Origin: a virus
Direction: 5' to 3' (one strand)
IMG/VR virus record: IMGVR_UViG_3300031566_000038
Length of the DNA: 56,620 nucleotides
Shown here piece by piece: positions 11,035 to 48,770 of the stretch. Below the pieces are notes generated by a model. That model ran no database searches. It was given only the letters and a program-made list of their open reading frames with translations, and was not told the DNA's origin. A program made the translations under genes and the position numbers. Every line of letters begins with the position of its first letter. Within the stretch, counting starts at the first letter, position 1.

Positions 11035-11610
11035 TTGTCTACACTGGTGGTTACGTTCAAAGCGGAAGCTGGCGGAATAACACTTTTCGAAGTACCGTTT
11101 AGTGTTCAATTACCTATCCAAATTCCGATACCGTTCCCGCCCCCGGACCCACTAGATTTTCTTTTAGGGCTACTCCTAGACGCTTTAGGGCTGCCGTTCC
11201 CTTTGGAGATTCCATCTTTGCCTTGCCCTTTTGAATTAGATCTATTATCTTTGTTACCACCGATACCGCCGATCATAATTCCCGGCTTGCCGCCTATACC
11301 GTTCCCTCCGCCTGACCCCTTAGATTTTCTAATAGGAGCGTTGTTAAATGCTTTGGGTTTGGCGTTTCCATTGGAGATTCCATCGCTGCCGTGCCCATTT
11401 GAATTGGATTTGTTATCGCTCTTACCGCCGATACCACCGATCATAATTCCCGGCTTGCCGCCTATACCGTTCCCTCCGCCTGACCCCTTAGATTTTCTAA
11501 TAGGAGCGTTGCTCGACTTCCTAGGTATCCCTGATATCGAGATACCTTCTTTGCCGTGTCCGTTCCCGGCAGGGATAACTTTGACAATAGACGTAAAGGT
11601 AATCCCTTAA
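11035..11610 (+). CDS. Pro/Leu/Ile-rich tandem-repeat protein (3 x 56 aa)
   Basis: TTG start with a GGGAGA RBS 6 nt upstream. Repeat copies 1 and 2 differ at 32 codons; 28 are synonymous in this frame (4 non-synonymous), whereas the same changes are mostly non-synonymous in the antisense ORF. Confidence 0.55.
   Translation: MSTLVVTFKAEAGGITLFEVPFSVQLPIQIPIPFPPPDPLDFLLGLLLDALGLPFPLEIPSLPCPFELDLLSLLPPIPPIIIPGLPPIPFPPPDPLDFLIGALLNALGLAFPLEIPSLPCPFELDLLSLLPPIPPIIIPGLPPIPFPPPDPLDFLIGALLDFLGIPDIEIPSLPCPFPAGITLTIDVKVIP
11131..11590. repeat. tandem 168-bp repeat, about 2.7 copies
   Basis: Units start at 11131, 11299 and 11467 and differ by point substitutions. Confidence 0.8.
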
Positions 11611-25376: not shown

Positions 25377-26294
25377 ATGGCCTATATATTAAGGGTTAAA
25401 ATTATCGGGGTGGCTAACGAAGCCGGTGACGTGGCGGTCAATATGCAATGCCATCTGACCGACACCGCTGGGGTGCCTTTCACTAACACCGCTGGGGTGT
25501 TGGACGAGTTCGTGGTAAGAGCCCCGAAGTCTTCTGATCCCGGCACCGGTCGCCTAGCGTACCTCACCGGCCTAGCTGAAGACGCTATCGCTTTGAAATA
25601 CGACGTGTCGTTGGCTGCGGACGGCTCCGACGGCTCGGACGTATTGACGATGGCTACCACCGCTGTGGATCAGATCTTTTTGGGCCTTCTCGTGGACGGG
25701 CCGGGGGTCACCACCCCCACGCCTTTGATATCGGTGTTGTCTACTACAGATGTCTTACTGACCGATACTTTGACCTTGGAATACACCGGCGACACCATAA
25801 GTAATGAGATTGATGAAACCGGCGACGTGACCTTAGACGACAACACCATAACTTCGATGTCTTCTACGGCGGATGTCACCGCAGGGATGTTTGTGACTGG
25901 GCCGGGGATACCCGTATTCGCTTCGGTGGTGTCGGTGACCTCGGGTACGGAGCTAGTGATCTCGCAAAATGCGGTGTTGACCACCGGGTCGGCAGCTTTG
26001 GTTTTCACCGACAACCCCGAGTCAGAATTCTTAACTGCGGTGACCCCGGCTATCTTACAAGATAGCTACGTTGGTATGTCTATAGTAGGGGACGGGATAC
26101 CGGACGGGACTTTGATAGCCGAAGTTATTGCCACGGACGAGCTAAGGTTGTCGGCTTTGGCGACTTCTACCAATACAACTTCAGCTTATTCGATCGCTGG
26201 GACGGCTCCGTACTTTTTCGATACTTCCGGTTTGACGGTGGACTACACGGATCTGCAAAGGGTGCTGGATATAGTAGACTTTGATAACTTGTAA
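25377..26294 (+). CDS. Thr/Val/Asp-rich protein (possible structural)
   Basis: 305-aa ORF with beta-rich composition. Confidence 0.5.
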   Translation: MAYILRVKIIGVANEAGDVAVNMQCHLTDTAGVPFTNTAGVLDEFVVRAPKSSDPGTGRLAYLTGLAEDAIALKYDVSLAADGSDGSDVLTMATTAVDQIFLGLLVDGPGVTTPTPLISVLSTTDVLLTDTLTLEYTGDTISNEIDETGDVTLDDNTITSMSSTADVTAGMFVTGPGIPVFASVVSVTSGTELVISQNAVLTTGSAALVFTDNPESEFLTAVTPAILQDSYVGMSIVGDGIPDGTLIAEVIATDELRLSALATSTNTTSAYSIAGTAPYFFDTSGLTVDYTDLQRVLDIVDFDNL

Positions 26295-26305
26295 GAGGCT
26301 TTGAG

Positions 26306-26875
26306 ATGAACCACAAATTGATAGCAGCGTTGCACCGGGTAGTAGCCCAGGGCCTTTCGGGGCAACAGCTTTCCACTAGGCTACGGCAATTAGATAAAAA
26401 TTACGGCTTTTACGACAAGAGCCAACAAGCTTATTTGCAAAAGATCTACAACGATGCTTACCACGACGGGGTAGCAGCGGTGAATAAGGATGCCTTCACG
26501 GATTCCACCCATGTCACGTTCCAAGAAGTTAGGGACCGATTCGAAGATTACGTCAAAATCGACGAAGAAGATTGGGATTTCATAGCCCAAGTAGCGGCAG
26601 GCAACCAAGGATCGATAGATGAAATCTTGAAGCGCTCCGGCCAACCCGGTTTCGAGAACGACTTTGACTACGATCTATACGAAAAATACTACATCGATGG
26701 CTCTCGGAAGCTGGAAGAAGACGAAGACTACGCACCCAAGGAAGGGATCAAAGGTGAAAAGATCTTCTTCGTCTCAGATATGGCCTATTCCGATGGGGTT
26801 GGCAAACGGCTTTGGAAGTTAGCTTCCCAAACAATCAAAGAGCTAGCTGACGAATTGATGGAAGAAAAAGTTTAA
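26306..26875 (+). CDS. hypothetical protein
   Basis: 189-aa ORF with an acidic C-terminus. Confidence 0.5.
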   Translation: MNHKLIAALHRVVAQGLSGQQLSTRLRQLDKNYGFYDKSQQAYLQKIYNDAYHDGVAAVNKDAFTDSTHVTFQEVRDRFEDYVKIDEEDWDFIAQVAAGNQGSIDEILKRSGQPGFENDFDYDLYEKYYIDGSRKLEEDEDYAPKEGIKGEKIFFVSDMAYSDGVGKRLWKLASQTIKELADELMEEKV

Positions 26876-27035
26876 GAATCGGAAACCGAATACGCTTGAC
26901 AAAAACCCCGCACCGGTATTACTTTGAATACTCAACCAACGCCAAGGAGCGAACGTGCTACTTCACTACATTCAAATTAGCTTTATTAAGCCTAAGCGGA
27001 TGTTCTGAAGCGTTTCCTGTCTTAAAGATATTAAA

Positions 27036-27065
27036 CGCCTAAGAACATCTTTCTTAGGCGTTTTT
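27036..27065 (+). terminator. rho-independent terminator
   Basis: 10-bp perfect stem CGCCTAAGAA/TTCTTAGGCG, loop CATCT, then TTTTT. Confidence 0.6.
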
Positions 27066-27073
27066 GTATTTAA

Positions 27074-27146
27074 GCCAGGGTAGCTCAGTAGGTAGAGCAC
27101 TAGGTCGAAACCCTAGGTGTCAGCGGTTCAAATCCGCTCTTCGGCG
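27074..27146 (+). tRNA. tRNA-Phe(GAA), atypical acceptor stem
   Basis: Cloverleaf read by hand. D-arm GCTCAGTAGGTAGAGC; anticodon stem CTAGG/CCTAG with loop TCGAAAC (anticodon GAA); T-arm AGCGG-TTCAAAT-CCGCT. The acceptor stem GCCAGGG/CTTCGGC has one A-C mismatch and two G-U pairs. No encoded CCA. Confidence 0.5.
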
Positions 27147-27159
27147 CTAAATTATTTAA

Positions 27160-27231
27160 TGGGTAGTAGCTCAGTGGTAGAGCGCAAGTCTGATAAACTT
27201 GAGGTCGGCTGTTCAACCCAGCCCTACCCAA
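27160..27231 (+). tRNA. tRNA-Ile(GAT)
   Basis: Perfect cloverleaf. Acceptor TGGGTAG/CTACCCA; D-arm GCTC-AGTGGTA-GAGC; anticodon stem CAAGT/ACTTG with loop CTGATAA; T-arm GGCTG-TTCAACC-CAGCC. No encoded CCA. Confidence 0.8.
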
Positions 27232-27367
27232 CTATTTTTACTATGGAGGTCTTAAGAAAATGAATACTACGACAACGCTAAGGCAAACCGGTAAGTCCTT
27301 CAAGAAATCTACCAAAGAGATTCTTCTCAAACATAAATAGCCCTCTATACATAGTCTGATATCTTAT

Positions 27368-27456
27368 GGGCTAGTTGTCGCTAGTCCATCCTGCTGGAGA
27401 TGTAGAGCATGGCACTTTTAATGCCAGGGTCGCAAGTTCGAATCTTGTCTAGCTCT
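27368..27456 (+). tRNA. tRNA-like element, Lys(TTT)-type anticodon arm, aberrant D region (possible pseudogene or unusual tRNA)
   Basis: Acceptor GGGCTAG/CTAGCTC (6 Watson-Crick + 1 G-U). Canonical T-arm GCAAG-TTCGAAT-CTTGT. Anticodon arm TGGCA-CTTTTAA-TGCCA. About 16 extra nt, including the palindrome CTAGTTGTCGCTAG, sit where the D-arm should be. A T-run follows. Confidence 0.35.
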
Positions 27457-27487
27457 TTTTGTAAGATATTAAACGAAGGAATTCAAA

Positions 27488-27709
27488 ATGAAATATTATA
27501 AGCAATGTACTTTTAGGCAAGAAAAAACGGTCACCACGGCTTGGATAGAAGAGCGTGGGGCTAAGGTGGGTAAGAAGGTGAAGTTCAAAGATGCGGACAA
27601 CGACGATTGGTGGGACGTGATTTCGGTGGGGGAAGACCGCCGCCCGGAAACCGCCGTCAAAATTTCAGAGAGATCTTACCTACACCAAAGGTCTATGTCG
27701 GACATCTAA
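27488..27709 (+). CDS. hypothetical protein
   Basis: 73-aa ORF with an AAGGAA RBS. Confidence 0.4.
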   Translation: MKYYKQCTFRQEKTVTTAWIEERGAKVGKKVKFKDADNDDWWDVISVGEDRRPETAVKISERSYLHQRSMSDI

Positions 27710-27756
27710 CGCCTGGAAAAATCCCCTGGGGCAAAACAAAGAATTTTGCTTGTAAC
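27707..27756. repeat. ~50-bp repeated element, copy A (inverted relative to 34526-34576)
   Basis: ACGCCTGGAAAAATCCCCTGGGGCAAAACAAAGAATTTTGCTTGTAACC. About 96% identical to the reverse complement of 34526-34576. Confidence 0.7.
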
Positions 27757-27852
27757 CTTCCGATATAATAAAGCTCTACTGATCTACGTTAGTCGGGTAT
27801 TTTTGGGACTTCGCCAGGGTTACTTTTTTAGAAACGAACCTAGGGGGATGGG

Positions 27853-28440
27853 ATGAGAAATCTGGTAGCTGCGTTGCATCGGGTCTTAGCGATCACAGAA
27901 GATGAAACAAAAAAGTTTATCTCCGACCACGGTGGGCGGCCCACCCAAAAGGATTTGGACAAGTACGTTCAAGACAAGGGTATGGATAAGGATGAGATCT
28001 CAGAGATCATGTACGATCTCGTGAAGAATCAAATAGGTGGTTTGGAAGCGCCGAAACCGAAGCCTAAATCTAAGTTAGATACTGAAGCGATTAAAAAATT
28101 GGCGAAAGCTACGGGCCTCGAATACGAAACGCACAACTATGAGGTTCGCTTCTTTCTCGAAAGCATGATCTACGTCGATGCTACTAAGATGACGGAAGAC
28201 GAATACGACGAGATGGAAAAAGAGATCAAAAGTTTTTCCTTAAAAGGCGAAGGTTATGAAATTTTCGCTTGGAATGATGTTAGCGGGTACGATTATTGGT
28301 CTCAGCCGGATGAAGAGACAAATTATATTCAGATAGAAGTTAAAGTAGACAAAGATAAGATCGAATCGATAGACCCCAAGCAATTGAAGTTTGATGTAGA
28401 AGATGCTCAGAATACTTTTCACCAGTGGGATAACGGATGA
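27853..28440 (+). CDS. hypothetical acidic protein
   Basis: 195 aa with an AGGGGGATGGG RBS. Confidence 0.5.
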   Translation: MRNLVAALHRVLAITEDETKKFISDHGGRPTQKDLDKYVQDKGMDKDEISEIMYDLVKNQIGGLEAPKPKPKSKLDTEAIKKLAKATGLEYETHNYEVRFFLESMIYVDATKMTEDEYDEMEKEIKSFSLKGEGYEIFAWNDVSGYDYWSQPDEETNYIQIEVKVDKDKIESIDPKQLKFDVEDAQNTFHQWDNG

Positions 28441-28847
28441 CTAGACCTCTAATCTTAATCCAAGCTGAAACCAATCCTATAATCATGGACCAAGTGATAG
28501 AAGAGGTTGGTCCTAGGGTATTAGAGATCGTGGAAAGTTTTTCGGCTAAGGCTTTGAATCGGTATAACGTGCGCCCAGGGAGAATCTTCGGTAACCCTAG
28601 GGGCAAGGAACGGTTCAAGGTGGTTGATCTAGTCGGCTCGAAGATCGTGTGGAAGGACTTACAAACGAACCGCACGACTTACGATGATGTAGACGAGATC
28701 TTAGAAGCTTGGTCTTTGGCGGGGTATCAAGAAATTTCCCGGATCGATCAAATGCTAGAAAAGTTGAAGTCCTGGTTAACTCCATTTTTAGGAGCGGTTA
28801 TTGTAGGCGCTCTGCTTTCATGGCTGGTTAATAAGTTAGGACGGTAA
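28437..28847 (+). CDS. protein with C-terminal transmembrane anchor
   Basis: 136 aa ending ...LTPFLGAVIVGALLSWLVNKLGR. ATGA overlap with the upstream gene. Confidence 0.5.
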   Translation: MTRPLILIQAETNPIIMDQVIEEVGPRVLEIVESFSAKALNRYNVRPGRIFGNPRGKERFKVVDLVGSKIVWKDLQTNRTTYDDVDEILEAWSLAGYQEISRIDQMLEKLKSWLTPFLGAVIVGALLSWLVNKLGR

Positions 28848-42242: not shown

Positions 42243-44813
42243 ATGAGCATTCGATTTTCCGGCATTTTGACGATCGATACCGTAACGGTAGTAACATCGC
42301 CTTATGTAGTAGAAGCTACATTTTCCGATTCGAGGGGCTATTTCGATGAAACTTTGATTGCTGTCGATAACGTGATTATCGACGCAAACAAAAATCGTTA
42401 TGTAGTCACCGACGTTACTAGCGTTACACCTTTGATCCTAGAATTAGAGTGGGACGACCTCGATGCGCCCGCCCAACCCACCACGGGCGATGGTATTATC
42501 GGTGTGGTTTCTTCCGCTAGGGAGCTTTTAGAAGTTACCCCGGACGCACCAACCGGTGTGGCAACCGCAGCCCGTAACATCGATTTCTTCAAAAACTTAG
42601 ATACCACACCAGATCTAGTTACCGGACCCGCTGGAGTCGCCGGAGCTACCGGCTTTGGCTTCGGCCAACAAGGTCTCACCGGCCCTTCCGGCGCTACAGG
42701 TATCGCAGGTATCATAGGACCACAAGGTGGCACAGGGCTAGCGGGTGTGGCTGGTGTGGCGGGAGCCGTCGGGACCAAAGGCGCTACCGGTCTCGGTGGG
42801 ACCAAAGGCGCTACCGGTACTAAAGGCAGCAACGGCACCCCAGGTGTTGACGGTGTAACAGGCCTTACCGGAGCCGTAGGAGCAATCGGAAGCACTGGTA
42901 TGGTAGGTTCCCAAGGATCTCAAGGTCTCACTGGAATTGACGGGACCAAAGGTGACACCGGAGCGGGCGGTTTGGTTGGCGACACCGGAGCGGGCGGCCA
43001 ACAAGGCCTAACCGGATTATCAGGTTCCACTGGTCTTCAAGGCGTCCAAGGCAACATAGGATCGCAAGGTACGACCGGAACAAGCGGTGCTACAGGATTA
43101 CTAGGTGGCACAGGTTTAATAGGTCAAACAGGGGTTTCGATAACCGGCCCACGAGGACACACCGGACCTTTCGGTCCTACAGGTTTAGCGGGAAGCACCG
43201 GAAGCCAAGGTGATACGGGTTCTCTGGGACTAAAAGGCGATACAGGCGTAGCGGGGACCAACGGCACCACCGGAGCGGGCGGCCAACAAGGGCAAACGGG
43301 AGCGTTAGGTCAAACCGGAGCCGATGGGGGTGTAGGCCAACAAGGTATCACAGGATTCGGCGGTACTACAGGCTTACTAGGAAGCACCGGAGCAACAGGA
43401 ATCCAAGGGTCCGTAGGCCAACAAGGTCTCACAGGCCCCGCAGGTGTAGGCGTAACAGGATCACAAGGTCAAACAGGTGCCGTAGTTCAAGGTGATACTG
43501 GAGTTTCGATAACCGGTCAGACCGGTTTGGCAGGACCGACGGGTAGTCAAGGATCGACAGGCCCGTTAGGTCTTGTTGGAGCCACCGGAGCAAGCGGCAC
43601 CAAAGGCGATACAGGTACGATCGGCGTACAAGGAAATACAGGCCTTAGTTTGCAGGGAAGCACAGGCCTTCAAGGTTCACAAGGTACAACCGGATTCAAT
43701 GGTAACGCTGGCTCTACAGGCGTAGCTGGCTTGCAAGGTGATACGGGTACAATAGGTGGTCAAGGCTCTGCCGGTGCTACAGGCGTTAACGGTCTTCAAG
43801 GGATAACTGGCGGTGTTGGTATTCCCGGTGAAACCGGAACACAAGGTGTAGTAGGAAATGCGGGAGCAACGGGTGTTGTCGGTACTCAGGGTATAACAGG
43901 ATTAAATGGTACTACAGGTATAGTAGGTAGTACAGGTGCTACTGGAATTAGCGGAGCCACCGGAGCCTTTGGAGTAATCGGAGCTACCGGAAGTCAGGGC
44001 ACCACGGGCGTAGCTGGAATCCAAGGAGCCCAAGGTTCCACCGGAGCCCAAGGCCAACAAGGAAATACCGGCCCAATAGGCACCACAGGTTCTATGGGTT
44101 CGCAAGGACAGCAAGGTCTGACCGGTGGACTCGGGCTCCAAGGTTTGACGGGATTATTAGGCGGCACTGGCGTACAAGGTGGCGTAGGAGTTGATGGTAC
44201 CACCGGGGTGAAAGGGCCTACAGGAGTACAGGGAGCGACGGGTCAACGAGGCTTCACAGGCATAGGCATTATAGGACCGCCAGGACCGATAGGCTCCACC
44301 GGATTCACTGGAACTACAGGTGTTCCCGGCGAAACTGGTGCTGGTTTACAAGGCCAAACCGGAGCGGGGGCCACAGGTCCAGAGGGTCACACAGGTGTCC
44401 AAGGAATTGCGGGAGCCACCGGCCCACAAGGTATAGCCAGAACCGCTTACAACTGGACGATCTCCAATAGTTCAGGTTTAATCGTTGGTACTTATATCGT
44501 TTACTTTGCGATGGAAGCGGTGACGATCGACGAGGTCGTGGTGACGATGATTAATTCAGGTACAGGCGGCACCGGCGCAACCCACTTTGAATTCTATAAA
44601 TTGGGAGCTTCCATTTTACCGACTTCACCACCGGTCGGTACCGGCGACTTCACGGTCATCATCCCGGCAGCGGGCGTGACGGTTATGAACGGCACCAAAG
44701 TAACCACCTTAGCTTTAGGTTTGGCCCTAAACGAATCTTTGGTAGTAGGGATCTCAGCGGCCCCGGACACCCCAGGTAATAACGCTTTGATTTCGATTCG
44801 AGCTTTGTTGTAG
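42243..44813 (+). CDS. collagen-like triple-helix repeat protein (fibre-like)
   Basis: About 600 aa of Gly-X-Y repeats rich in T/Q/A/V, from roughly residue 125 to 730, flanked by non-collagenous N- and C-terminal domains. Confidence 0.75.
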   Translation: MSIRFSGILTIDTVTVVTSPYVVEATFSDSRGYFDETLIAVDNVIIDANKNRYVVTDVTSVTPLILELEWDDLDAPAQPTTGDGIIGVVSSARELLEVTPDAPTGVATAARNIDFFKNLDTTPDLVTGPAGVAGATGFGFGQQGLTGPSGATGIAGIIGPQGGTGLAGVAGVAGAVGTKGATGLGGTKGATGTKGSNGTPGVDGVTGLTGAVGAIGSTGMVGSQGSQGLTGIDGTKGDTGAGGLVGDTGAGGQQGLTGLSGSTGLQGVQGNIGSQGTTGTSGATGLLGGTGLIGQTGVSITGPRGHTGPFGPTGLAGSTGSQGDTGSLGLKGDTGVAGTNGTTGAGGQQGQTGALGQTGADGGVGQQGITGFGGTTGLLGSTGATGIQGSVGQQGLTGPAGVGVTGSQGQTGAVVQGDTGVSITGQTGLAGPTGSQGSTGPLGLVGATGASGTKGDTGTIGVQGNTGLSLQGSTGLQGSQGTTGFNGNAGSTGVAGLQGDTGTIGGQGSAGATGVNGLQGITGGVGIPGETGTQGVVGNAGATGVVGTQGITGLNGTTGIVGSTGATGISGATGAFGVIGATGSQGTTGVAGIQGAQGSTGAQGQQGNTGPIGTTGSMGSQGQQGLTGGLGLQGLTGLLGGTGVQGGVGVDGTTGVKGPTGVQGATGQRGFTGIGIIGPPGPIGSTGFTGTTGVPGETGAGLQGQTGAGATGPEGHTGVQGIAGATGPQGIARTAYNWTISNSSGLIVGTYIVYFAMEAVTIDEVVVTMINSGTGGTGATHFEFYKLGASILPTSPPVGTGDFTVIIPAAGVTVMNGTKVTTLALGLALNESLVVGISAAPDTPGNNALISIRALL

Positions 44814-46016: not shown

Positions 46017-46270
46017 AATTAAAAAGAAATTCACCTTCGAACCGTTGCGGCTCAACGCATTAATGAGATGTAGTAGAACACGTTATAGAAACTCCTTGCG
46101 GTGTTAAAATCCGATGTTAGATTATAACTATTCCGAACGTTCAGGCGGAGGGTACGGGGAAGGGCTACAGTCCTTTTTTTTAGTGGGGAAGTCCCCCTTT
46201 TTCCTTCAAGGTCTATTCGGAACTTACGCTCCCGGTGTGGGAGTTAACAATTGAAAAGAGGGAGACTCTT

Positions 46271-47383
46271 ATGATTCTCAAGCGCAAACCTTATCGTGTG
46301 TCGATCGTCCTTGGTCGATTTCAAGTTTTCCACAAAGCCCACAAAAGATTATTAGACGAAGCGTTCACGTTGGCGGATATCGTTTTGGTTGTTTTAGGTT
46401 CGCACCAAGCGGCTTTGAACATCAAAAACCCGTTCACCACCGACGAAAGAGAAGAGATGATCCGCAAGGTCTACCCCGACCGAGATATCCATTTCGTGGT
46501 GGTGCCGGATCATATGTACGACGACGACCGCTGGCTCCTAGAAGTTCAAGCCAAGGTCCGGCAAAAGATTACGGCGCTTGGGATCGAAACTGAAATTGTC
46601 ATCCGTCCTTGGGAAGATCGAGCGGTAGCCCCTCCCAAAGTGAATAAAGATATTTGTATCTGCGGCTACTACAAAGATTCGAGTTCTTATTACCTCGACT
46701 ACTACAAAAACATATGGGGTTTCGAAACCCACGTAGCTTCTATCAACATTTCTAGCACCGACATCCGAACCGCTTTGTTTACCGATGGGCGAGTCCAGCC
46801 TGAGCAAAGTAATTTGCATTGGGCGCAACAAGTTCCCGACCCGGTCGTGGATTGGGTCTCTGCTAATTTTTTAGGCACTCCAAAGTTTGACTACCTCAAA
46901 GAAGAGTACGATTTCCTTGTTGATTATAAGGAGAAGTGGAACCCTACGGGCGATCGGCAATGGATCACCGGGGACGCTATAGTGGTTCAAAATGGTTTGG
47001 TCTTGATGGTGATTCGAAAAAATATGCCTGGCAAGGGGTTGTGGGCTTTACCTGGCGGTTTCATCAAGAAAACCGAAACGATCGACAACGGGGTGCTTAG
47101 GGAACTCAAAGAAGAGACCGTGATCGGGATGCACAAACACGAGCTTCGCAAACACTTCGTGGGTAGTGCAGTGTTCGACCACCCTGACAGAGACCTCCGG
47201 GGTAGGATCGTAACTCACGGGCACTTCTTCAAGCTGGGGAAGGACATCCCGCTACCGCACGTCAAAGGTAGCGACGATGCTTTGAAAGCTTTTTGGGTGC
47301 CGATAAACGAAGTCATCCAGAACGCCCACAACGTCTACGGCGATCATATCCATATCCTAAATTATTTGTCTCGTTTCAACTAA
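46271..47383 (+). CDS. nadM: bifunctional NMN adenylyltransferase / Nudix hydrolase (NadM/NatV-like)
   Basis: N-terminal LGRFQVFHKAH (GRFQPFH nucleotidyltransferase motif). Nudix box GGFIKKTETIDNGVLRELKEETV. GAGGGAGA RBS. Confidence 0.75.
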   Translation: MILKRKPYRVSIVLGRFQVFHKAHKRLLDEAFTLADIVLVVLGSHQAALNIKNPFTTDEREEMIRKVYPDRDIHFVVVPDHMYDDDRWLLEVQAKVRQKITALGIETEIVIRPWEDRAVAPPKVNKDICICGYYKDSSSYYLDYYKNIWGFETHVASINISSTDIRTALFTDGRVQPEQSNLHWAQQVPDPVVDWVSANFLGTPKFDYLKEEYDFLVDYKEKWNPTGDRQWITGDAIVVQNGLVLMVIRKNMPGKGLWALPGGFIKKTETIDNGVLRELKEETVIGMHKHELRKHFVGSAVFDHPDRDLRGRIVTHGHFFKLGKDIPLPHVKGSDDALKAFWVPINEVIQNAHNVYGDHIHILNYLSRFN

Positions 47384-47393
47384 GAGGTCTGTT

Positions 47394-48770
47394 ATGTCTG
47401 ATTTTTACAGCTTTTTAAGCAATCTTATTTTTCTCACTGACTCTTACAAGGTCTCCCACTGGCGTCAATACCCGAAGTCTATCACCAAGATGTTATCTTA
47501 TTTTTCCAGCCGGGGTGGGTTGTACCCTGAAACGGTAGCGAATGTTTTGCTCCACTACCAAATGAAGCGGTTGGAAGGGGTGCAAATCACCCAAGAAAAG
47601 ATCGAAGAAGCGGCGGAACTTTTTAAATTTCACTTCGGTGATGAAAGCATTTTCAACCGTGCGGGTTGGGAATATATCCTAAAGGAGCACGGTGGTCGGC
47701 TACCGTTGAAGATCAAAGCGGTCGCCGAAGGCACGGTAGTACCCCACGGCAATGTTTTGATTGTGGCTGAAAGCACCGATCCTAAATGTCCTTGGGTCAC
47801 CAACTACTTCGAAACCTTCATGGTGCAAAATTGGTACCCTTCCACGGTGGCTACTTTTTCGTACACGGCTAAGAATCTTATCAACCGCTACCTCGAAGAA
47901 ACCGGTGACCCTGCCGGTTTGCCTTACAAATTGCACGACTTCGGGGTCAGGGGCACTAGCAGCATGGAATCGGCAGCGATCGGTGGGGCGGCTCACCTCC
48001 TAAATTTCTCTGGCACCGACAACCTACCCGCTATGGCTTTGCTCAAAAAGTTCTACGGGGGGTACGTGGGGAACTCTATTCCGGCAGCGGAGCACTCCAC
48101 AGCGTGCTCTTGGATCAAAGAAAAAGATTTCTTCCGTCACATGATCGAAGAATTCCCAGGGATGGTAGCGGTGGTGTCCGATACCTATGACATCTACGAA
48201 GCTTGCCGGGTTTGGTCCACCGAGCTTAAAGACCAAGTTCTGGCCCGAAAAGACGGCTGTGTGGTTATCCGGCCTGACTCGGGTGACCCGCTAGAAGTCT
48301 TGGAAAAGATCTTCGAGATCCTAGGGGAGAACTTCAAGAACGAGATCGTGGTAAACAAAAAAGGTTACAGGGTATTACCACCCCAGGTGCGAGTGATCCA
48401 AGGAGATGGAGTAGACATAGAAGCTATCGGCGATATCTTAGAGATGCTGAAGTTGAAAGGTTGGTCGGCAGACAATATAGCTTTCGGCTGTGGTGGTGCT
48501 CTTTTACAAAAATTGAATAGGGACACTAATAAGTTTGCTTTCAAAGCGTCCGCCGTTTTGGACAACGGGGTATGGCGGGAAATAAGGAAGAACCCGGTCA
48601 CCGACCCCGGTAAAGCAAGCAAAGCGGGCTTATTAGATCTTGTCAAAATCGACGGAACCTTTACTACCACTTCACCTTCGGGGAATTCATTGCTTGCGGT
48701 AGTTTTCGAAAATGGTATGGTGCCGCCGAGCGATAGTCTGGAAACTATTCGCACCCGCTTAGTGGTCTAA
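47394..48770 (+). CDS. nadV: nicotinamide phosphoribosyltransferase (NAMPT/NadV)
   Basis: 458 aa. HDFGVRGTSSMESAAIGGAAHLLNFSGTDN is typical of NAMPT. Lies 10 nt after nadM. Confidence 0.8.
   Translation: MSDFYSFLSNLIFLTDSYKVSHWRQYPKSITKMLSYFSSRGGLYPETVANVLLHYQMKRLEGVQITQEKIEEAAELFKFHFGDESIFNRAGWEYILKEHGGRLPLKIKAVAEGTVVPHGNVLIVAESTDPKCPWVTNYFETFMVQNWYPSTVATFSYTAKNLINRYLEETGDPAGLPYKLHDFGVRGTSSMESAAIGGAAHLLNFSGTDNLPAMALLKKFYGGYVGNSIPAAEHSTACSWIKEKDFFRHMIEEFPGMVAVVSDTYDIYEACRVWSTELKDQVLARKDGCVVIRPDSGDPLEVLEKIFEILGENFKNEIVVNKKGYRVLPPQVRVIQGDGVDIEAIGDILEMLKLKGWSADNIAFGCGGALLQKLNRDTNKFAFKASAVLDNGVWREIRKNPVTDPGKASKAGLLDLVKIDGTFTTTSPSGNSLLAVVFENGMVPPSDSLETIRTRLVV

Follow-up and report, generated by a model that had tools for sequence, protein, structure and literature searches.

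Large lytic phages such as T4, T5, and the cyanomyoviruses have tRNA clusters in which degenerate tRNAs and additional stable tRNA-like RNAs occur. Phage tRNAs are more and more regarded as a means of codon supply and of escape from host defenses that cleave tRNA, and the control of their expression is almost unknown. Here, we investigated a tRNA cluster in a 56,620-nt stretch of viral DNA (IMG/VR record IMGVR_UViG_3300031566_000038; one strand, 5′ to 3′), referred to below as the window. Its source is an uncultivated large phage from freshwater and soil metagenomes. The cluster contains genes for tRNA-Phe(GAA) and tRNA-Ile(GAU) and a third tRNA-like gene at 27368–27456 on the + strand, which we call element 3. 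A structured leader precedes the cluster, and an exact 13-nt direct repeat (copy 1 and copy 2) stands on either side of it.

Pseudo-tRNAs are exemplified by tRNA-Other of Bacillus cereus (PMC3399842), and leader-peptide attenuators by those of amino-acid operons (trpL, pheL, thrL, and the ilv leaders; PMC1183508, PMC3082878). With about even confidence, we read the present locus as an accessory tRNA operon with two working tRNAs, a disabled tRNA-Lys, and an attenuator-like leader, located in a phage hot spot. Taken alone, it is an ordinary accessory tRNA island in which one tRNA-Lys is disabled or repurposed. What merits an experiment is the attenuator-like leader.

The tRNA-Phe and tRNA-Ile genes

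Searching with the window's own proteins gave 13 loci on 11 distinct contigs, drawn from 11 metagenome samples and all 99.7–100% identical to the window. The source samples include the SRR29492071-73 and SRR8554504/12 sites and JGI 3300031539/31578/31669. The 612-nt intergenic stretch that holds the tRNAs is the same in these contigs except for one single-nucleotide polymorphism. Because the same sequence recurs in contigs from several samples, the odd features of the cluster are not assembly errors. The same near identity makes covariation analysis impossible.

ARAGORN in default mode called only two tRNAs in the whole window, Phe(GAA) at 27074–27147 and Ile(GAU) at 27160–27232. The Rfam tRNA model (RF00005) scored them at 57.6 bits (27074–27146, + strand; model positions 1–71) and 58.8 bits (27160–27231, + strand; model positions 1–70), respectively. 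Both genes match the model over its full length, with four paired arms and a 7-nt anticodon loop, and each cloverleaf either is the minimum-energy fold or lies no more than 0.5 kcal/mol above it. The initial annotation of this DNA had called tRNA-Ile textbook, and the default call and Rfam score agree. It had listed tRNA-Phe as aberrant. The weak acceptor stem that it reported is real (an A4·C69 mismatch and two G·U pairs), but the score and fold do not support calling the gene aberrant. No CCA is encoded in tRNA-Phe, and a population variant in one contig (L009, 27079 G>A, that is, G6A) converts its G6·U67 pair to A-U. The tRNA-Ile is canonical and homologous to a tRNA-Ile at the same site in related phages (contigs L019 and L029), being 74–78% identical to the copy at L029 4441–4516. 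Both genes look functional.

A tRNA-Lys-derived element with a 16-nt insert

Element 3 begins with the 5′ acceptor strand GGGCTAG (27368–27374), followed by a T, a 16-nt insert (TGTCGCTAGTCCATCC; 27376–27391), and another T. The D arm is degenerate (GCTG-GAGATGTA-GAGC). Beyond it lie a perfect Lys(UUU)-type anticodon arm (TGGCA-CTTTTAA-TGCCA, anticodon at 27417–27419), a 5-nt variable loop, a canonical T arm (GCAAG-TTCGAAT-CTTGT), the 3′ acceptor strand CTAGCTC, and a U discriminator. The connector from the acceptor to the D stem is 18 nt long, where the canonical requirement is 2 nt. The acceptor strands, T arm, and Lys-type anticodon arm given in the initial annotation are all present. So are the roughly 16 extra nucleotides that it placed where the D arm belongs, which fall between the acceptor and D stems.

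Default ARAGORN made no call on element 3. In relaxed mode, it returned a poor 77-nt tRNA-Lys (27379–27455) built on a second GCTAG, and in mitochondrial mode it called a tRNA without a D arm. The Rfam tRNA model matched in part (27393–27448, 30.0 bits against a threshold of 29, model positions 10–63). This match spans the D arm to the T arm and leaves the acceptor stem outside, and element 3 gave no full-length RF00005 match that included the acceptor stem and a 2-nt connector. Neither ARAGORN (default and relaxed) nor Rfam found a differently folded canonical tRNA at 27368–27456. The range of answers first proposed, a pseudogene, a tRNA with an insertion, or a tRNA-like RNA, was the right one.

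Folding predictions indicate how the insert acts. The segments GGGCUAGU and GCUAGUCC form a local 8-bp hairpin (27368–27375 with 27380–27387) that is present in every fold. With the 5′ strand held in this hairpin, the 3′ acceptor strand pairs with GCUGG. The poor or absent ARAGORN calls arise because the 5′ acceptor strand is folded away in this manner. The minimum-energy fold of 27392–27455 is a three-way junction with the anticodon arm, the T arm, and a 5-bp closing stem. Forming the complete cloverleaf costs 9.2 kcal/mol relative to the minimum free energy, and its ensemble probability is about 8e-7, compared with 0.13–0.24 for the neighboring tRNAs. Element 3 also departs from the expected tRNA core (U8, A14, G18–G19, and a paired 13–22). 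It has GCTGGAGATGTAGAGC in place of the GCTCAGTTGGTAGAGC of the closest tRNA-Lys genes, position 13·22 is G·G, one G of G18G19 is gone, and U8 is displaced by the insert. We predict an RNA with a 5′ hairpin and a D-arm-less three-way junction rather than a cloverleaf, in which the insert would let the 5′ acceptor strand pair with itself as soon as it is transcribed.

We also considered that element 3 is a functional, non-canonical tRNA-Lys(UUU) whose 16–18-nt connector loops out, so that it is charged, decodes, and perhaps escapes host anticodon nucleases. The acceptor (7 bp), anticodon (5 bp), and T (5 bp) stems are paired. The T loop (TTCGAAT) and anticodon loop (CUUUUAA) have canonical sequences, and the anticodon arm exactly matches that of bacterial tRNA-Lys. 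Odd tRNAs of related phages are still called by ARAGORN, including an 80-nt tRNA-Pro in contig L014 and a tRNA-Thr with a short D loop in L019. Furthermore, a phage tRNA-Lys rescues infection from the PARIS nuclease (PMC11464382). However, the cloverleaf is costly and its competing hairpin forms first during transcription, and the core changes remove tertiary contacts. The discriminator is U, versus A in all six of the closest tRNA-Lys genes, and the anticodon loop has no escape-type change. To our knowledge, functional tRNAs of bacteria and phages do not have an 18-nt connector from the acceptor to the D stem, a further point against decoding. Taken together, we regard decoding by element 3 as improbable.

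The 21-mer covering the anticodon arm and variable loop of element 3 occurs in only 6 of 185,579 species genomes, always within a tRNA-Lys(UUU) gene of Planctomycetota. These six genes (L023–L028) are from metagenome-assembled genomes of Tepidisphaerales, Phycisphaerales, and Planctomycetales and offer a hint of the host, which judging from this match is possibly a member of Planctomycetota. Identity to the six genes extends over 30 nt (27402–27431). The acceptor and T stems are unlike theirs yet fully paired, and in the D arm conserved positions of the 5′ half have changed. Because the acceptor and T stems have changed and still pair, element 3 descends from a once-functional phage tRNA-Lys, which was altered by an insertion and D-loop changes. 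The insert-free ancestral allele would read GGGCTAGT(A)GCT. Separately, we asked whether the 16-nt insert duplicates the 3′ end or the T arm of element 3 itself; at best, 8/9 positions agreed in a local alignment (P = 0.12), which is not significant.

The 30-nt block shared with bacterial tRNA-Lys genes could also suggest a phage attachment site (attP) carrying a copy of the 3′ portion of a tRNA-Lys gene of the host. The identity is central rather than at the tRNA 3′ end, and the T stem and 3′ acceptor strand are unlike those of every genome hit. None of the species genomes searched contains the exact 32-mer that extends into the T arm. No integrase was found among the window open reading frames (ORFs) that were scanned, and the window carries genes of large lytic phages. 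We therefore rejected this explanation as very improbable. Other RNA classes were also set aside. ARAGORN (-m) found no transfer-messenger RNA (tmRNA) in element 3 and Rfam gave no tmRNA family hit at E ≤ 10, which dismisses both one-piece and two-piece forms, and no other Rfam family matched. A Y RNA-like identity was rejected as well, since a weak YrlA hit covers tRNA-Phe and tRNA-Ile instead of element 3 and is far below threshold.

Element 3 might instead be a selected, non-decoding tRNA-like RNA. It could serve as a processing mark for RNase P, Z, or E that separates the tRNA precursor from the mRNA of the 73-aa gene downstream, as a decoy for nucleases that target tRNA-Lys, or, through its 5′ hairpin, as an acceptor mini-helix. 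Regulatory roles are known for some pseudo-tRNAs (PMC3399842). In element 3, the anticodon stem-loop is intact, and the element sits 7 nt from copy 2 of the 13-mer and 20 nt from the ribosome-binding site of the next gene. Its 5′ flank (TGATATCTTAT; 27357–27367, + strand) forms an 11-bp helix with 27461–27471, which overlaps copy 2, in both the minimum-energy and centroid folds of 27340–27530. This helix (P = 0.009 by flank shuffling) isolates element 3 as a domain. The 5′ hairpin has a G·U third pair followed by an A, which we take to recall the alanine identity set. On the other side, there is no evidence of conservation, the fold of 27340–27530 as a whole is no more stable than its shuffles (z = −0.77), and neither tmRNA nor any other family matched. 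We hold selection for such a role to be unlikely, though more credible than decoding.

Element 3 is most likely a recently disabled, non-decoding relic. At most, it would be a tRNA-like module with a structure that guides processing from the tRNAs to the next mRNA. The intact stems imply that the damage is either recent or tolerated. This broken tRNA-Lys is a clean natural example of one short insertion trapping an acceptor strand. Programs that find tRNAs can be tried on it, and it offers a case in which to ask whether phages retain tRNA-like RNAs for uses beyond decoding.

An attenuator-like leader upstream of the tRNA genes

Upstream of tRNA-Phe is a leader that resembles those of amino-acid operons. 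A putative, weak promoter (TTGACA-18 nt-TACTTT; 26896–26925, + strand) can be read by eye just past the stop codon of the preceding 189-aa gene. It is followed by a leader at 26944–27008 (+ strand), in which a Shine-Dalgarno sequence, AAGGAG (26944–26949), stands 5 nt before a 17-codon ORF running from GTG at 26955 to TGA at 27006–27008. The product, VLLHYIQISFIKPKRMF, is encoded with three Ile, two Phe, and two Lys codons. Of the 16 codons after the start, 7 correspond to the Phe, Ile, and Lys anticodons encoded downstream (P = 0.004 by shuffling and 0.008 by a binomial test against the phage's own genes).

The leader RNA can form two hairpins. The first, an antiterminator (inverted repeat I2; 26998–27050, + strand), has a predicted energy of −22.4 kcal/mol (z = −5.4). 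The second is an intrinsic terminator (27033–27068, + strand) with a perfect 13-bp stem (27033–27045 with 27051–27063), a 5-nt loop, and a TTTTTG tail (−17.7 kcal/mol, z = −7.3), and it ends 10 nt upstream of tRNA-Phe. The two are mutually exclusive, as 27033–27050 is common to both, and the whole-leader fold has a z score of −4.7. In the minimum-energy fold of the free leader, the 5′ arm of the antiterminator pairs with 26944–26983, which covers region 1 along with the Shine-Dalgarno sequence and GTG. In attenuator terms, this is a 1:2 pairing, and the antiterminator is the 2:3 pairing. The Ile and Phe codons at 26970–26987 fall inside region 1, and the stop codon at 27006 lies inside region 2. 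The consensus scan found no promoter-like site between the terminator and tRNA-Phe, and the tRNAs therefore need read-through of the terminator.

We then modeled a ribosome as a block on the leader. The antiterminator was favored by 2–7 kcal/mol with the A site at codons 3–8 or 11, and both states were within about 1 kcal/mol at codons 9, 10, or 12. From codon 13 to the stop, the terminator was favored. Two features of a trp-type attenuator are found here, namely an intrinsic terminator overlapped by an exclusive antiterminator and a short leader ORF with its own ribosome-binding site, whose regulatory codons lie in region 1 and whose stop codon masks region 2. From this one sequence, we tentatively assign a trp-type attenuator architecture ahead of the tRNA operon, at somewhat less than even confidence.

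The switch logic is most likely trp-type, ribosome-mediated attenuation. The 17-codon leader would be translated, and a ribosome stalling at its Ile, Phe, or Lys codons would free region 2 to form the antiterminator. Unhindered translation up to the stop codon in region 2 would let the terminator form. Copy 1 of the 13-mer would then be the common strand of a switch that gates read-through into the tRNAs. In its strongest version, this is a self-regulating tRNA operon in which the leader senses a lack of the tRNAs encoded downstream and the rearranged tRNA-Lys is kept as a structured module, a version that we consider possible but unlikely. In that version, a shortage, such as depletion or cleavage of host tRNA, would turn the terminator off and supply more phage tRNA on demand. 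If true, the attenuator would be a feedback device that gauges the availability of the very tRNAs under its control, a new use of a textbook mechanism. We found no description in the literature of leader-peptide attenuation controlling tRNA genes.

It is also possible that nothing here is regulatory: the terminator could simply end the upstream operon, the tRNAs could have an unrecognized promoter, the leader ORF could be spurious, and the 13-mer could have arisen by chance. The leader ORF is short, begins with GTG, and is known from a single sequence, and it is not unusual for a window to contain one or two close 13-mer repeats. No + strand promoter passed a consensus scan of 26000–28600, a scan that may not fit this host. 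However, two overlapping and exclusive hairpins each have z scores below −5, the terminator ends only 10 nt before tRNA-Phe, and the codon match has a P value of about 0.004–0.008. The stop codon lies in region 2, and both 13-mer copies are paired to complements. We consider the wholly non-regulatory explanation doubtful. If neither the attenuator nor a tRNA-like role holds, what is left is an ordinary accessory tRNA island with one decaying gene.

Several points weigh against our overall reading. The candidate promoter at 26896–26925 fails the consensus scan, the regulatory codons of the leader are scattered, and its start is GTG. Coupling of transcription and translation in the presumed host is an assumption, and the host hint itself comes from one 21-mer. 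Element 3 is covered by contigs of ten samples and is 100% identical in all of them, which gives no comparative support. Its four stems are intact or nearly so, a state as compatible with a functional RNA as with a very recent relic. Proteins, modifications, and tertiary contacts do not enter into the thermodynamic predictions. Finally, no diverged copies of element 3 or of the leader were found in IMG/VR, GenBank phages, GTDB genomes, or the JGI metagenome set. The leader and its helices are carried by the near-identical strains only, and the leader has no match at all among GenBank phages. Element 3 shows generic tRNA similarity to GenBank phages, the best being a Xanthomonas phage tRNA-Asn (93% over 43 nt), and exact-pattern scans of IMG/VR with segments of it gave 0 hits.

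The 13-nt repeat

The 13-mer AAGATATTAAACG occurs exactly at 27025–27037 (copy 1, + strand) and 27463–27475 (copy 2, + strand) and nowhere else in the window. These are the positions before and after the cluster reported in the initial annotation. Copy 1 is more than a flank, as it supplies the apical 3′ strand of the antiterminator and, with its last 5 nt, the base of the terminator stem. Copy 2, likewise, does more than follow the cluster. It begins 7 nt past element 3, base-pairs with the 5′ flank of that element, and directly precedes the Shine-Dalgarno sequence AAGGA (27476–27480) of the 73-aa gene. Thus, both copies are paired to nearby complements, in different structures. Copy 2 would form a leader-trailer helix around the broken tRNA-Lys, beside the ribosome-binding site of the 73-aa gene.

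The initial annotation had suggested a promoter-like signal, and this was not supported: the consensus scan predicted no sigma-70-like promoter at either copy. Neither TTGAATAC nor TTACTTTGAATA is enriched as a recurring phage promoter motif. The exact 13-mer is one instance within the window rather than a dispersed motif or repeated signal, although at up to two mismatches there are six matches (four with two mismatches each) against 1.77 expected. The promoter early stem-loop (PeSL) elements of T4-type phages are many copies, dispersed over variable regions, of a composite of promoter and stem-loop, and the 13-mer lacks this pattern. As it is not dispersed, it is not a PeSL-like family. In a Markov-2 simulation, a window with this size and composition is expected to hold about 0.58 exact direct repeats of at least 13 nt within 600 nt. 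We estimate the chance of such a pair bracketing this particular cluster at roughly 1e-4 to 1e-2, with post hoc choice taken into account, and chance alone is an unlikely origin for the pair.

The most economical reading of the duplication is recombination. We suggest that short-homology recombination in the hot spot assembled the cluster and left the 13-mer and other repeats as by-products, with copy 1 kept since it is part of the switch. An 8-mer, TTTTTGTA, is likewise repeated at 27061 and 27456, and a 22-nt imperfect repeat (D14) covers the two stem-plus-T-run ends.

A more specific possibility is that the 13-mers and the TTTTTGTA 8-mers are direct repeats left by the entry of a tRNA cassette through short-homology or site-specific recombination, and that they could mediate its loss again, like the PeSL mini-circles of T4-type phages. 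Shuffling of repeat-flanked cassettes is documented in T4-type phages (PMC2839356, PMC4122927). An exact 13-mer bracketing the cluster is hard to obtain by chance, and the locus is a proven hot spot, occupied in relatives by other sets of tRNAs. Another pair of repeats (28 nt, 82% identity) lies at the gene starts at 26306 and 27853, and contig L014 links a tRNA cluster, an HNH endonuclease, and a homologue of the 73-aa gene. However, only two copies of the 13-mer exist in the window, and copy 1 contributes its last 5 nt to the terminator stem. The copies are also internal to the island instead of at its borders with relatives. They do flank the tRNA cluster, as first noted, but they are not the edges of the island, which spans about 26876–28436. 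As for a target-site duplication, direct repeats are present, the island borders in relatives are elsewhere, and no empty site was seen among the contigs examined, including those that carry the 73-aa gene, none of which is a cassette-free variant. The island contains no transposase. The empty-site junction CCTGTCTTAAAGATATTAAACGAAGGAATTC was not found in one metagenome scan, which had no power because the collection lacks this phage altogether. The pair may be the footprint of a target-site duplication or of recombination, and we consider cassette entry a possible but unlikely origin.

A similar sequence was noticed in relatives. AAAATATTAAACGCC is identical at 14 of 15 positions to copy 1 plus the next two bases, and it lies inside the 106-aa-family gene of L029 (5735), L019 (6838), and L021 (1716), where it encodes KILNA. 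A complementary GGCGTTT follows, as in the window terminator (27024–27068), and the window's own 106-aa-family gene differs at this site. Homology between copy 1 with its terminator and this hairpin was rejected, as the match is not significant by BLAST.

The variable island and related phages

The tRNA cluster lies between conserved genes of 189 and 136 aa, in an island (26876–28436, + strand) that is absent or different in related phages. Among diverged homologues of these two genes, five lineages have both adjacent or 10–65 nt apart, and the island-free lineages include L015/L016/L021, L032/L033, and P0026. The island of L019/L029 has tRNA-Ile(GAU), tRNA-Thr(UGU), and an unrelated 82-aa gene, and that of L020 has two unrelated reverse-strand genes. 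The two tRNA-bearing islands have only tRNA-Ile in common. Since relatives have nothing, other tRNAs, or unrelated genes at this site, the cluster lies in a hypervariable insertion hot spot, as these sequence comparisons indicate. In the broad sense, then, the mobility proposed for the cluster region is well founded. L019 and L029 have TTGAAA-17-TAGGAT at the place equivalent to the putative promoter, directly before tRNA-Ile and with no leader.

Odd tRNAs recur in this phage group. The tRNA-Thr(UGU) of L019 (5623–5691) and L029 (4520–4588) is 69 nt long and has a short D loop with no GG motif (50.7 bits). The distant contig L014 (66–318 and 363–1043) encodes tRNA-Asn, tRNA-Tyr, and tRNA-Pro with an encoded CCA and unusual D regions. 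Against Rfam at E ≤ 0.1, only its Tyr gene matched, as a sub-threshold tRNA-Sec. A short hairpin with a T run precedes the first of these tRNAs, and an HNH_3 endonuclease gene and the 73-aa homologue come after them.

In the window, the 73-aa gene (27488–27709, + strand; phrog_25356, unknown function) follows element 3 and copy 2. Its only diverged homologue, that of L014, is likewise beside a tRNA cluster (three tRNAs) and the HNH endonuclease gene. Between tRNA-Ile and element 3 is a small ORF of 26 aa (MNTTTTLRQTGKSFKKSTKEILLKHK; 27260–27340, + strand) with GGAGG 10 nt upstream. It is rich in Lys and Thr, with four consecutive Thr and six Lys codons, and showed no family match, no homologues, and no significant RNA structure. 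We rejected it as a truncated homologue of the 82-aa gene of L019/L029, as there is no similarity.

The starts of adjacent genes at 26306–26346 and 27853–27890 share the 28-nt repeat noted above, which encodes LIAALHRV (M..L[IV]AALHRV). The same gene-start duplication occurs in L020 (693 and 1140). This repeat is likely a recombination linker for the swapping of gene cassettes. Window positions 27700–27899 are the only polymorphic patch among the near-identical strains, with 14 variable positions including an indel. The polymorphism gives 191-, 195-, and 199-aa versions of the gene starting at 27853.

The source phage

The window ORFs form a phage-like gene set that includes a replicative helicase, a flap endonuclease, an RRM protein, and a subtilisin-like protease. 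The helicase was recognized by eye, and a DnaB_C match was seen for its homologue in relatives. Other ORFs encode NAMPT, a NUDIX/NMN-adenylyltransferase, DnaJ, an HNH endonuclease, a collagen-like protein, and a vault-protein-like protein. The helicase, flap endonuclease, and NAD-salvage genes are typical of large lytic phages. The NAD-salvage pair, a cytidylyltransferase-like/NUDIX protein and NAMPT, is at 46235–48770, the vault-protein-like gene at 2489–5143, and the collagen-repeat gene at 42243–44813. An ORF at 11035–11610 contains a near-exact 168-bp tandem duplication (11203–11510). Contigs related to the window are as long as 87–210 kb.

At the left edge (212–452, − strand), the window has a full-length HEARO RNA, of the IscB/IsrB-associated omega-RNA family (122.5 bits). 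The ORF usually paired with this RNA would fall outside the window start, and the adjoining 293-aa ORF (454–1335, − strand) has no Pfam match. IMG/VR searches with the flanking proteins, the helicase, and a 189-aa family alignment returned no relatives. The JGI metagenome collection gave nothing by protein alignment or by the junction of copy 2 with the ribosome-binding site, and it evidently does not contain this phage.

Comparison with known systems

Like the accessory tRNA clusters of T4, T5, and the cyanomyoviruses, the present cluster consists of tandem tRNAs with unusual stems and no encoded CCA in a non-essential variable region. Linkage to a homing-type HNH gene is also shared, here in the relative L014. 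Unlike those clusters, it is preceded by an attenuator-like leader, and its third gene has an 18-nt acceptor-to-D connector, a feature that we have not seen described.

Element 3 resembles pseudo-tRNAs in being tRNA-derived, near or below the detection threshold, and unlikely to decode. It differs from them in that its stems are all, or nearly all, paired, the lesion is a single insert along with D-loop changes, and the gene is part of a phage operon. The three-way junction at 27392–27455 is also like that of mitochondrial tRNAs that lack a D arm, and ARAGORN calls it in mitochondrial mode. Such tRNAs need dedicated mitochondrial factors, and nothing suggests that they work in bacteria.

As with the PeSL elements of T4-type phages, short repeats and a terminator flank non-essential genes in a hyperplastic region. 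However, the 13-mer has two copies only, with no recognizable promoter in it and no dispersed family in the window.

The leader compares most closely with the trp-type attenuators. It has the Shine-Dalgarno sequence and short ORF, regulatory codons in region 1, a stop codon that masks region 2, exclusive 1:2, 2:3, and 3:4 pairings, and a 3:4 helix that is an intrinsic terminator. It differs in that its regulatory codons (three Ile, two Phe, and two Lys) are scattered and not in a run. Furthermore, it is phage-borne, and the genes that it would control are not biosynthetic enzymes but tRNAs for the same codons.

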